Part shown: in pieces, positions 24,170-28,364 of the stretch | How the letters are laid out: the number at the start of each line of letters is the position of its first letter | How positions within the stretch are numbered: the first letter of the stretch is position 1 | Source: Planctomycetaceae bacterium | Lineage (GTDB): Bacteria > Planctomycetota > Planctomycetia > Planctomycetales > Planctomycetaceae | NCBI GenBank assembly: GCA_044235005.1 | Contig: JBIIIF010000003.1 | Location: 5,792 to 69,791 of the forward strand | Length of the DNA: 64,000 bases | Direction of reading: 5' to 3' | Notes under the pieces: model-generated | Told to the model about the DNA's origin: nothing | Database searches by the model: none | The model's input: the letters and a program-made list of their open reading frames with translations, nothing else | Position numbers and translations under genes: made by a program

Positions 24170-24598
24170 TTGATTACTCAAGAGATGAACATGATGAACG
24201 TTAGAAACAAGACTCGGTTTTCTCCTCGCGTGGGCACTAGTCGCAGGGGAGCGCTTACTGTTGAATTTGCGATCGCAGCACCTCTGATCTTCCTGCTGTT
24301 CCTGGGAGGATTGGAGTTGACGGCTCTGAATTTTGCTCGTCAGACGGCAGGAAATGCCTCCTATGAGGCGGCTCGCAGGCTGATCATTCCCGGGGGAACG
24401 GTCGCTCAGGCCCAGGCGGAAGGATTACGCCAGATGAACATGGTTGGTCTGGGAACGGGTGCGAGTTGCACTGTCGTTAATGCCGCGACGACAGCGACTG
24501 CGACAGTGTCAGTCCCCGCCACCAACGTTTCATGGGGCTTAATGCGGTTTTGTGCTGGTTACAACATCACGCAGAAATGCACCCTCACTAAGGAATGA
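24170..24598 (+). CDS. TadE-like Flp-pilus minor pilin/pseudopilin
   Basis: 142 aa. RRGALTVEFAIAAPLIFLLFLGGLELTALNF. Start is TTG 24170 or ATG 24185. Confidence 0.8.
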   Translation: MITQEMNMMNVRNKTRFSPRVGTSRRGALTVEFAIAAPLIFLLFLGGLELTALNFARQTAGNASYEAARRLIIPGGTVAQAQAEGLRQMNMVGLGTGASCTVVNAATTATATVSVPATNVSWGLMRFCAGYNITQKCTLTKE

Positions 24599-24631: not shown

Positions 24632-24702
24632 GGCCAGCCGGAATTTGTCTGACAGCAATCAGACAGATTCAGGCTGGCCATTCCTGTTTAGGGCCTTTTT
24701 TT
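24632..24702 (+). terminator. long imperfect hairpin plus T-run after the tad minor-pilin genes
   Basis: ggccagcc gga atttgtctga cagcaa tcagacagat tca ggctggcc (about 21 bp, imperfect), then gggccTTTTTTT at 24691-24702. Confidence 0.5.
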
Positions 24703-24953
24703 GGGACACTCTCGCCTGTCGATTCGGGCTGAAAGTCGGGAAAACGTTGACAACACAGGCGTGTGGCGACCAATAGTCCTGTTTATCGTGCTGACTCTCC
24801 GGATTGCGCTGCCGATTGGAAGATGTCAAAGTTACGGGTTTCTCTTTGTCGAAAGAACGGCAGCGATCGTGATTTGAATGAATTGCCAGGGATTGCTATT
24901 CTTCGCCCCTTCCGAAGTGGCATTCAAGTTCGAAGTCCGGAGATTATTGGCTC

Positions 24954-25043
24954 ATGGGTACGAAGAAGACGGGCAAAGGTCGACGAAAAATTGGTCGCAA
25001 GAAGCGCCGTATGCGCGCCAAAATTCGACACCGCAAGGGCTAG
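24954..25043 (+). CDS. 29-aa highly basic peptide, probable bS22-like (AURKAIP1/COX24-type) small ribosomal protein
   Basis: ATG 24954 has GGAG 13 nt upstream. Translation is MGTKKTGKGRRKIGRKKRRMRAKIRHRKG* (18 of 29 residues K/R), with TAG at 25041-25043. A clean intrinsic terminator starts 16 nt later. It is too short for the supplied ORF track. Confidence 0.55.
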   Translation: MGTKKTGKGRRKIGRKKRRMRAKIRHRKG

Positions 25044-25058: not shown

Positions 25059-25091
25059 CCGTTTTCGGCATGTTGCAGAAAACGGTTTTTC
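25059..25091 (+). terminator. intrinsic terminator after the 29-codon ORF
   Basis: Perfect 8-bp stem ccgttttc/gaaaacgg with an 11-nt loop, followed by TTTTTCT. Confidence 0.7.
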
Positions 25092-25504
25092 TGTGGCAAA
25101 TGGTCGCTGTAGCCGGAAGTAAAAACTCCGCGTTTTTTCGTTGCGCCAGTGTGTAGTTTTACTCCTGTGGTGCTTCCCGTGTTTATTGAGAGCGATGCTC
25201 CGCGGGGTCGAAGAAGGCAGCTCCGTGGCCTGATGCCGCAGGTTGCATCTTCACATTATCGTGTCGTGCAAATCTCTCTGATTGGATGTGCCGTTTGCGT
25301 TTGAACGCGACTGCTCAAACTGCGTCTCATTCGTGGTTTTAGAGGCAGTGCAACGCGTGAATACAGCGACATCGCCGTTTCAATCATTTGGATGGCGCGA
25401 AGCCGACGAGCTGATTGTTATCCAACAGGCACACGTCAATCATTGATCACCTCGCAGCTCAACTGGGCTGCAAGGCATGGTCTGCGAACTGTGAGGGATC
25501 GGGC

Positions 25505-26023
25505 TCAGAGTTCCAGGCCGAACGTCAGTTTGCAGGGCAGGTTTACAGGTTCAGTCCTGCTGAAGTATGACACGCGAGCATTCAACGTTTTCGCGTCTGT
25601 TGCGATTTGCCATGACTTCGAATAAGTCATGTTCTCTCCGAATCCAAAGCTTCCAGAACCGCTCTCACTACTCTCGATGATCTCGCCTTTGTCATCCAGA
25701 AATTCGACTTTCTGAATCGTATCGAGTGGTTTCGACCCACTGAGTCCGAATGACTGCTTGAACGGGTCCCCGAATGCTGGGGCAATTTGACCTACGCTCA
25801 GTTCGACTGGGCCGATCTTCACTTTGATGCCCTCTGCCAATTTCAGATTCACATCGACGGTTTTCAAGTCGGCTCCTGCGATGAGAACAAAAGTACCGTC
25901 GATCCGGAGGCTGTTCGTCGACCTCGCTGGGAGCTCAGCGCTGCGAAGAGTAATTGTGCCTTCTGACGGTTTGTCATTAACCGTCATTCGAAAATCTCTG
26001 TCGAAGAATTCCTCCAGTGGCAA
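25505..26023 (-). CDS. hypothetical protein
   Basis: 172-aa ORF (TTG 26023, or ATG 25987 giving MTVNDKPSEG...). An in-frame TGA lies just upstream, so it cannot be extended. No signal peptide or recognisable motif. The coding call rests on length and composition only. Confidence 0.45.
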   Translation of the reverse strand: MPLEEFFDRDFRMTVNDKPSEGTITLRSAELPARSTNSLRIDGTFVLIAGADLKTVDVNLKLAEGIKVKIGPVELSVGQIAPAFGDPFKQSFGLSGSKPLDTIQKVEFLDDKGEIIESSESGSGSFGFGENMTYSKSWQIATDAKTLNARVSYFSRTEPVNLPCKLTFGLEL

Positions 26024-26269: not shown

Positions 26270-28364
26270 GTGACTGTGGAATTATCTCTCCAGCCATCAG
26301 CCGGAAACGAAGAAAATCGTGCAGCAGGAATCCCTGTTTCTCCGGAAGATCTCTGCGCGGAAACTCCGGAACTGTTGCAGGAGTTGAAATGGACTATCCG
26401 TGCTCTGGAGGCTGTTGAATCGCGGTTTGGCGTGATCTCAACTCAGCAAGAGCAGCCGTCTACAGCCGAAGGTTCGTCCCTCGAGGTTGAGCGGTCCGAT
26501 ACGGTTCTTGTTTCCTCAGAGTACAGGATTGAGGAACTGCATGCCTCCGGAGGTCCTGGGAGCGTTTACGTCGCGATTGATCCTGTGCTGAATCGTAAAG
26601 TCGCGATTAAATTTCCTCGATGGAAAAATCTGACTTCTGAGCAGGCAGGCAGATTTGAACGGGAAGCGAGAGTCACCGGTCGGCTTGATCATCCAGGGAT
26701 AGTTCCCGTTCATGCACTCAAGTCTGATCGAACAAATCATCCTTGTTGCGTGATGCGTTTTGTTGATGGGAAAACGTTACAGGCGAGGATTCAATTTCTG
26801 CATTCTGCAGCCCCGAAGGCAAAGACAGCTTCTTTCTTTGAGTCGCACGAATTTCGACAGCTTCTACGGAACCTGGTAACTGTTTGCAATATCGTTGCCT
26901 ACGCTCACGAGCAGGGAGTGATTCATCGCGATATCAAACCGGCTAATATCATTCTGGAGCCATTCGGCGAAGTGCTGTTGCTGGACCGGGGATGGCAAAG
27001 GTCTTCAGCGAAACCTCGGACGATCCTGCAGCGGTCGCAGCAGAGGCCGCGAAAAACACTCAATTTGAAACACATGACGGACAGGTTCTTGGGACGCTGG
27101 CGTTTGCCAGCCCCGAACAACTGCTCGGGCACACAGACGACGTGACTGTTGTTTCAGATGTTTATGCCCCTGGTGCGACACTGTTTGCATTGCTGACAGG
27201 ATCTTATTCCATCGGTAAGAGTGCGTTTCACGAGCATCTGAATCGGCTGAAGCAGGGACAAAGGTTTTCGGCGCACGAAGTGAATCCTGCCATCCCTGTG
27301 GCACTGGAGGCAATCTGTTGCCGTGCGATGGAGATTCGTCCAGCAGATCGTTACGGCTCGCCCATTTTGCTGGCTGAGGACATCGAGCGATTTCTCGCAG
27401 GAGAGTCTGTCAGTGTCTGTCGTGATTCGACGTTCGTCAGGCGTGGACGCTGCATTCGTCGCCGGCCGGGACTGGCTGCTGCTTCGGCGACAGGAGTGCT
27501 GATCGCTTCATTAGCGGGAGCTGCGGGATCGGTCGTCCTGGGCCAGAAGAATCAGGAACTTCAGTCAAACAATGAGAAGCTTGAATTGGCGATGGAGGAT
27601 TCTCGATCCGCTAATGTTCGGACTCTCCAGGCTTTACGCACACTGGTTGACGATATCGTCGCGGAAAAGTTGGGAGATCAGACGGAGCTGACGGATTCTG
27701 ATCGTGAGTTTCTGCGGAAGATTCTGCAGCAGTACGAAACATTCGCCAGTATGAAAGGCGATTCGATCGAGAGTCGTGTGATACGCGCGGAAGGTCTGCA
27801 GCAGAGTGGCACAATTCTTCTGCAACTGGCCGCTTCGCTCCTTGACGTCAGTCTTTCCATGCAGAACTTTGGAGAACTGGCAGCAGCCGAGCAGGCCGCG
27901 AATAAGGGCCTTGCTGTGCCAGCACCTGTTCTCGGCAAAGGGGCAGGGGCGTCTGATTCTGTTGCCTGGGAGGCCTATGCGAACTCCAGCAACTGCTCGG
28001 TGGCATTCAGATTGCCGAAGGGCGAATGGAGGAGGCTCTTGCTTCTTTTGGACCGTCGAAGGATGTTTTCGAGAAACGACGAGCCTCCAATTCCGAATCG
28101 CACGAGACACAGGCCGGACTCGCGGAATCCTACAGGGCGATGAAGTGATGCGTGTCAGCAACTGGGTGATATTGCCGGACAGGAAGACTATTCGCATCAG
28201 GCTCTGGAACTGTATCTGTCTTCCTGAAGCCTTTTGTTCTGAAACGGATCAGAGCCTCGGCTGAGTATGGTGAGCTTTGCAAACATCGGGATTTGTCCGG
28301 ACTTGTTGATCAGCTTGATCCCGCGAAACTGCCCGTGGAAGCTCCAGCAGGACCAACCCAATGA
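26270..28364 (+). pseudogene. Ser/Thr protein kinase with TM segment and TPR-like C-terminus, disrupted by at least 4 frameshifts
   Basis: The kinase core (VAIKF, HRDIKPANIIL) runs in frame 2 to ...VLLLDRG. It continues in frame 1 as MAKVF...GTLAFASPEQ (ORFs 26270..27145 and 26992..28143 overlap). The C-terminal TPR-like text then hops frames near 27980, 28146 and 28225 before TGA 28362-28364. Confidence 0.75.

Follow-up and report, generated by a model that had tools for sequence, protein, structure and literature searches.

In the ribosome, the mini-proteins bS22, mS38 and eL41 are lodged in a pocket formed by 16S h44/h45 and 23S H68-H70. For bS22, the pocket in the 70S particle involves 16S h2/h27/h44/h45 and 23S H68-H70, and eL41, a 25-residue helix of eukaryotes and archaea, sits in the same intersubunit pocket. 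The bS22 proteins of Bacteroidota and Borrelia used here as the compared set were Fjoh_1533 (7JIL chain 5), the P. gingivalis protein (9I5V chain 10) and B. burgdorferi bb0822 (8FMW chain V). Fjo bS22 has 30 aa and a pI of 12.7 (PMC7797042), and Lys and Arg make up 61% of Bbu bS22 (PMC10618245), the paper from which both the Fjo and the Bbu bS22 sequences were taken. According to that paper Bbu bS22 had escaped mass spectrometry, as trypsin destroys such a peptide. A literature search for a planctomycete ribosome structure found none.

The window analysed here is a stretch of 64,000 nucleotides from a Planctomycetaceae bacterium (GCA_044235005.1, contig JBIIIF010000003.1, positions 5,792 to 69,791 of the forward strand). 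A sequence-only reading of this window had singled out a hyper-basic ORF of 29 codons on the plus strand, with its own ribosome-binding site and terminator, and had taken it for a bS22-type ribosomal peptide. The ORF was present exactly as described. Its coding status, distribution and relation to bS22 and other ribosomal mini-proteins are reported below, and the features of the locus are collected in table 1.

The 29-codon gene and its signals

The open frame begins with an ATG, which is also its first possible start, and ends with TAG. Its product contains 8 Lys and 8 Arg among 29 residues and has a pI of approximately 12.0 and a mass of 3477 Da (approx. 3.48 kDa), or 3346 Da once Met is removed. 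The ORF falls below the length cutoff of the ORF track and is without database annotation. It had been described as lying alone in a region of about 900 bp, and 906 bp were measured between the end of a TadE-like ORF at 24598 and the end of a minus-strand ORF at 25505. In the AF2 model (mean pLDDT 80), residues 8-28 form a helix and residues 1-7 are predicted to be flexible; according to helical-wheel angles on this predicted helix, I13, M20 and I24 share one face.

Table 1. Features of the locus (positions are those of the window).
Feature	Positions	Strand	Basis or remark
Near-perfect hairpin of ~21 bp, GGCCAGCC...GGCTGGCC, followed by a T-run	24632..24702	+	sequence reading; putative function
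-35-like hexamer TTGAAT	24874..24879	+	upstream alignment of 22 genus orthologs; TTTGA core invariant
Extended -10-like element TG-C-TATTCT (TGCTATTCT)	24894..24902	+	17 nt past the -35; TGnTAT conserved in genus
Shine-Dalgarno sequence GGAGA (GGAG 24939-24942)	24939..24943	+	10-11 nt ahead of the ATG
CDS of the 29-residue peptide MGTKKTGKGRRKIGRKKRRMRAKIRHRKG (ATG 24954 to TAG 25043)	24954..25043	+	ORF reading, purifying selection, AF2 model
Peptide sequence with a putative place in the ribosome pocket, GRRKIGRKKRRMRAKIRHRK			
Terminator-like hairpin, 8-bp stem, 11-nt loop, TTTTTCT	25059..25092	+	strength uncertain

For the promoter analysis, the 260 nt upstream of the gene were aligned for 22 genus members. 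Conservation was limited to the last ~85 nt and included TTTGA(A/T), a 17-nt spacer and TGnTAT(T/C)CT, the promoter-like element TTGAAT/TGcTATTCT being kept in 22/22. The hexamer TTGAAT matches the -35 consensus at 4/6 positions, for which reason it is not flagged by a consensus scan. A different promoter had been put forward in the sequence-only reading, namely TTGACA at 24747 with AATAGT 19 nt downstream; both motifs are present, but conservation of their region stops at the three closest genomes, so that this candidate is not the conserved promoter. The GGAG proposed as ribosome-binding site is real, and its spacing to the ATG, previously given as 13 nt and thus approximately right, was measured as 11 nt. 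GGAGA is invariant in the genus, and GGAG, GGAGG or AGGAG was located 7-13 nt upstream of the start in all other families and in a second class (see below).

Downstream of the gene, the stem arms CCGTTTTC (25059-25066) and GAAAACGG (25078-25085) are followed by the T-run at 25086-25092. The 8-bp stem, the T-run and a start at the 16th nt past the stop had all been read correctly, but the structure is not a textbook terminator. RNAfold favoured a rival hairpin in which the T-run is paired with an A-run (fold z-score against shuffles only -1.75), and the consensus scan of the locus called neither a promoter nor a terminator; the stem at 25059-25085 is passed over by the scan because its loop is longer than 8 nt. 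In view of the competing fold, the z-score and the missing call, the terminator is regarded as plausible but weak. In most orthologs a hairpin of some sort that ends in a T-rich tail is present, but its sequence is unrelated and its distance varies. For the hairpin at 24632-24702, Rfam returned only a sub-threshold miRNA-like hairpin; this element is likely to be the terminator of the upstream TadE/vWA (tad/vWA) operon and would mark the 5' boundary of the mini-gene unit. No relevant family was found in the Rfam search of the locus.

Neighbouring genes differed from family to family, with no linkage to translation genes, and the gene is therefore considered to stand alone, as do the bS22 and bL37 mini-protein genes of Msm (PMC10618245 supplement). 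With its own conserved promoter and ribosome-binding site and its changing neighbours, the locus agrees with the idea that a hyper-basic mini-protein is encoded here by a genuine gene with an organisation of its own. Transcription is predicted to start near 24909, and the locus would form a monocistronic unit in which a promoter of the sigma-70 type, with its extended -10, precedes a 5' UTR of ~45 nt, the Shine-Dalgarno sequence, the 29 codons and, as terminator, a weak hairpin.

Further along the plus strand of the window, a Ser/Thr protein kinase appears to be split over the overlapping frames 26270-27145 and 26992-28143 (26270-28143 in all). The split falls close to the part of the kinase domain that is equivalent to DFG and is attributed either to a frameshift in the gene or to faulty assembly.

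Distribution and codon-level conservation

In a six-frame search of related genomes, the peptide was carried by 40 of 41 Planctomycetia, with one strong match each. It was found in 16/16 genera and 9/9 families sampled within the class and in all genomes of its own family (24/24). Strong matches were restricted to Planctomycetia in a phylum-wide sample. When 185,579 species genomes were scanned, 76 loci were confirmed, and their labels are almost all Planctomycetaceae, Pirellulales, Pirellulaceae, Fuerstiella, Planctomicrobium, Blastopirellula or Thermogutta. Four loci with a Planctomycetia-type peptide come from MAGs named Chitinophaga, Chitinophagaceae and Candidatus Kuenenia; their upstream sequence is that seen in Planctomycetaceae, which suggests that these are mislabelled or contaminated bins.

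A weak match in a second class pointed to a short form of the peptide: it proved to be an ORF of 26 residues preceded by a Shine-Dalgarno sequence of its own. This form has 25-26 residues and was found in 18/61 genomes of that class, distributed over five families. It follows the pattern M[PAG]KPRRRRK[IV]GSKKR.[AM][RK]WK.R[HN].., for example MPKPRRRRKIGSKKRHAKWKARHH.Q and variants. Comparison of the short and the 29-residue forms by column permutation gave z = 6.8, and on this score the two are clearly homologous.

In the public databases searched, no name for the peptide was found. An exact look-up in a collection of 15 billion proteins returned a single unnamed JGI copy of a variant, and 242 significant matches were obtained when 1.84 billion representatives were scanned with HMMER. 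Among the 150 of these that were listed, nearly all were over-extended ORFs of 40-142 aa in which the conserved 29 residues form the C-terminus, and none formed a bridge to other phyla. As judged from these entries, the over-extension is a systematic annotation artefact of gene calls lengthened upstream to clear a length threshold.

Codon-level conservation was analysed in 23 species of the genus. Variable sites at codon positions 1, 2 and 3 numbered 7, 3 and 26 over the 29 codons, and dN was 0.035 and dS 1.79 (saturated), corresponding to a dN/dS of ~0.02. All 23 distinct genus-level orthologs are 90 nt long, and the site of the stop is fixed, with TAA, TAG and TGA all in use there. Across Planctomycetia, 17/29 positions are invariant; single positions at which Lys is distinguished from Arg, together with G7, G9, G14, I24 and H26, are near-invariant over the whole class. 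The start codons ATG, GTG and TTG interchange between lineages, always with a GGAG-type Shine-Dalgarno sequence 7-13 nt upstream. The expectation that the micro-ORF would be conserved in relatives with variation at synonymous sites was thus borne out (40/41 genomes, dN/dS 0.02). The conservation is, by these measures, far above chance, and the locus is certainly to be read as a genuine protein-coding gene under strong purifying selection. Such constraint on a peptide rich in Lys and Arg is typical of ribosomal proteins embedded in rRNA.

Relation to bS22 and assessment of function

The resemblance to bS22 that had been pointed out, in length, MG start, K/R content, C-terminal RHRK and helix, is real (29 aa, 16 K/R, pI 12.0, predicted helix 8-28), but these traits are not family-specific and any K/R-rich 30-mer could show them. 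Searches with the bS22/AURKAIP1 models NF047430 and PF08213 COX24_C gave no match to the peptide at E<=10 and missed the locus in a six-frame search of the genome; the control, Msm bS22, scored 62.6 and 46.2 bits in these searches. Neither the peptide nor the locus was matched by the bTHX models TIGR04560 and PF17070, for which the control Thermus THX scored 54.7-64.9 bits. PDB searches with the family profile and with the single sequence returned zero chains. Flavobacterium bS22 retrieved 7JIL_5, 9I5V_10 and 8FMW_V from the PDB, and Fjo and Bbu bS22 retrieved each other and the P. gingivalis chain. NCBIfam and Pfam also miss Fjo and Bbu bS22, which have been proven by cryo-EM; the HMM negatives alone therefore say little, and a protein of this kind is not excluded by them.

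Composition-matched nulls were used because such peptides are of low complexity. Profiles were compared by our own profile-profile Smith-Waterman test with column permutation as the null. In this test the peptide family gave z 1.5-1.7 against COX24-type bS22 and z 0.4-0.6 against Fjo/Bbu bS22, and the positive control, COX24-type against Fjo/Bbu bS22, gave z 5.35 (p < 0.001). Pairwise shuffles against Fjo, Bbu and Msm bS22 gave p 0.1-0.3. Hints of a relation were limited to two: hhalign placed columns 17-28 on columns 17-28 of Planctomycetota COX24-type bS22 (P 0.003, probability only 10.6%), and one COX24-type sequence could be aligned without gaps at z = 4.1, uncorrected for the 11 comparisons made. 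Proven bS22 types pass the permutation test, in which the peptide remains at chance level. Its homology to bS22 is thus not demonstrated, and its assignment to that family, which had been the central proposal, was not supported by the model searches, the PDB searches or permutation.

COX24-type bS22 was found in 8/151 Planctomycetota genomes, and the peptide in 0 of these 8. The two never occurred in the same genome among ~210 Planctomycetota genomes. This counts as weak evidence and may simply reflect phylogeny, since related genomes are not independent of one another and most of the Planctomycetota sampled carry neither type. No carrier of the peptide was seen with COX24-type or Fjo-type bS22, and a search of the second class with a Fjo-type bS22 profile gave no match. 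The sampled carriers have one copy of the peptide and neither of these bS22 types alongside it, the weight of this finding being limited by shared ancestry.

Eight lineages outside Planctomycetia encode COX24_C-type bS22 of 22-32 residues that score higher than the Pfam cut-off and in some cases begin with GTG (for example G048:C86:61519-61602 and G097:C123:2307-2396), and bS22 proper therefore exists in Planctomycetota. By the profile test (z = 5.35), these sequences are a link between the actinobacterial/mS38 type and the Bacteroidota/Borrelia type.

The reading that we prefer, with a probability of about 0.5, is that the peptide acts as an rRNA-embedded ribosomal mini-protein of the bS22/eL41 kind. 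It is favoured because of the size, charge, predicted helix and positional conservation of the peptide, its single-copy stand-alone gene and the lack of co-occurrence with the COX24 type. The product would consist of a short Gly-rich N-terminal tail and one predicted helix of 21 residues, on which I13, M20 and I24 would form a narrow hydrophobic ridge amid Lys and Arg. The peptide would be buried in rRNA and would neutralise phosphate charge as do bS22, mS38 and eL41. We infer ribosome binding, the binding site and the transcript boundaries of the gene; relative to bS22, the peptide may be either a homolog too diverged to be detected or an analog.

We consider it possible, at clearly lower odds, that the product is a nucleic-acid-binding peptide outside the ribosome, either a polycation associated with RNA or the nucleoid or part of some other RNP, which would share only its composition with ribosomal mini-proteins. 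Its similarity to each ribosomal family tested was at chance level, the tests run gave no tie to the ribosome, and the gene shows no linkage to genes of translation. Codon usage was not clearly of the highly expressed type: in this genome it was nearer to the genomic background than to the EF-Tu/ribosomal-protein set (P = 0.012, high-expression model), and the ortholog mean was like that of rpmG. Against a non-ribosomal polycation, the near-invariance of the K-versus-R positions and of G7, G9, G14, I24 and H26 points to a binding partner that is fixed and specific, not to generic charge, and to our knowledge the characterised bacterial peptides of similar size, charge and depth of conservation are all ribosomal (bS22, bTHX, bL37, bL36, bL34).

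A further alternative concerns bL34. This genome, whose completeness by marker genes is 100%, gave no credible match in a Pfam Ribosomal_L34 search, and L34 was likewise not detected in nine other Planctomycetia genomes sampled, as against 116/151 Planctomycetota genomes in which it was found. A Planctomycetota-specific L34 profile matched nothing either, and neither it nor the Pfam model touched the locus. The genome has rpmJ (C24:6450-6563) and no detectable rpmH, and upstream of rnpA (C489:11774-12079) there is neither rpmH nor a small basic ORF. Weak 'L34' matches in Planctomycetia were inspected and found to be spurious, among them a sub-threshold match in the own family that is located inside a restriction-modification gene. 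These results agree with a published note, the loss of L34 in Planctomycetes being already on record (bioRxiv 10.1101/2021.01.31.429008). In the second class, the peptide was carried by 5/5 genomes without L34 and by 13/56 with it, L34 being absent in 0/43 non-carriers (Fisher p = 0.0014, uncorrected for relatedness).

The peptide could accordingly be imagined as a large-subunit protein, or one at another site than that of bS22, which tolerates or compensates the loss of bL34 as a non-orthologous partner or replacement; this we regard as improbable. The correlation is built on few related lineages, and ~24 peptide-less genomes elsewhere in the phylum are also without detectable L34 (0/4 in one family, for instance). 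Intact L34 stands alongside the peptide in 13/18 carriers of the second class, from which it follows that the peptide is not an L34 ortholog and predates the loss. The profile test of the peptide family against L34 gave z 0.6-1.5. A truncated or derived bL34 was ruled out by the co-occurrence in the second class and the missing L34 core, GF..R..T..GR. Equally doubtful is the more specific version in which the peptide would found a Planctomycetota-specific ribosomal family unrelated to bS22, THX and L34, whose acquisition would have allowed the otherwise near-universal bL34 to disappear, with one loss in the Planctomycetia ancestor and further losses in several of the second-class lineages that carry the peptide.

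A frame this short, below the ORF-track cutoff and without annotation, might be suspected of making no functional protein and of being either a regulatory leader peptide or a fortuitous frame in DNA that is untranslated or encodes an RNA, but this is effectively refuted by the codon-level record (dN/dS 0.02 with saturated synonymous change), and it is opposed as well by Shine-Dalgarno, start and stop positions kept across two classes, by the lack of a conserved downstream gene for a leader to regulate and by the absence of an Rfam match.

If the peptide is ribosomal, as we prefer, every ribosome of Planctomycetia holds a component that is unlisted by annotation pipelines, by Pfam/NCBIfam models and in solved structures, and which gene callers record almost only as wrongly extended ORFs. 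It would then be the fourth sequence type of hyper-basic peptides that plug rRNA pockets, after bS22/mS38, eL41 and THX. The finding bears on the spread and age of such mini-proteins and on how a bacterial class manages without the buried bL34, and the 29-position profile from this analysis allows the gene to be annotated in two classes.

Comparison with described ribosomal mini-proteins

The families compared share different traits with the peptide. bL34 (PF00468) is likewise very basic and buried in rRNA, and it is absent from exactly the class in which the peptide is universal; it differs in its length of 41-54 residues and in its invariant core, which the peptide lacks. bTHX (TIGR04560/PF17070) binds rRNA in the 30S head and is similar in its 26 residues, its MGKG start and a RRGKI-like run, but pairwise comparison gave z 0.0-0.6 and the bTHX signature GD.RT..GK...G.YG..RP is missing from the peptide. 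eL41 is a single hyper-basic helix of similar length to the helix predicted here, and a MRAK.R..R run is, we presume, common to both; eL41 belongs to another domain of life and is without the Gly-rich tail.

With the actinobacterial bS22/mS38 type (NF047430, PF08213) the peptide shares the MGS/MGT start and the length of ~30 residues, and its hydrophobic positions 20 and 24 and its RH at 25-26 are in register with Planctomycetota COX24-type peptides, whereas the N-terminal half of the actinobacterial type, SV[IL]KKRRKKMNKHK, has no counterpart in it. Compared with bS22 of Bacteroidota and Borrelia, the sequence relation is not significant (z 0.4-0.6, p 0.2-0.3 for Fjo/Bbu bS22). The Gly-rich tail MG(T/S/V)KK(T/S)GKG and the GRRK[IVL]G motif of the peptide family are absent from these proteins, and their THK/KHK motif is absent from the peptide. 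Common to both are 28-31 residues with ~60% K/R, a helical form (predicted for the peptide) and a C-terminal R-H-[KR]-K, as well as a single small stand-alone gene that is often unannotated, sometimes starts with GTG and is invisible to Pfam and NCBIfam.
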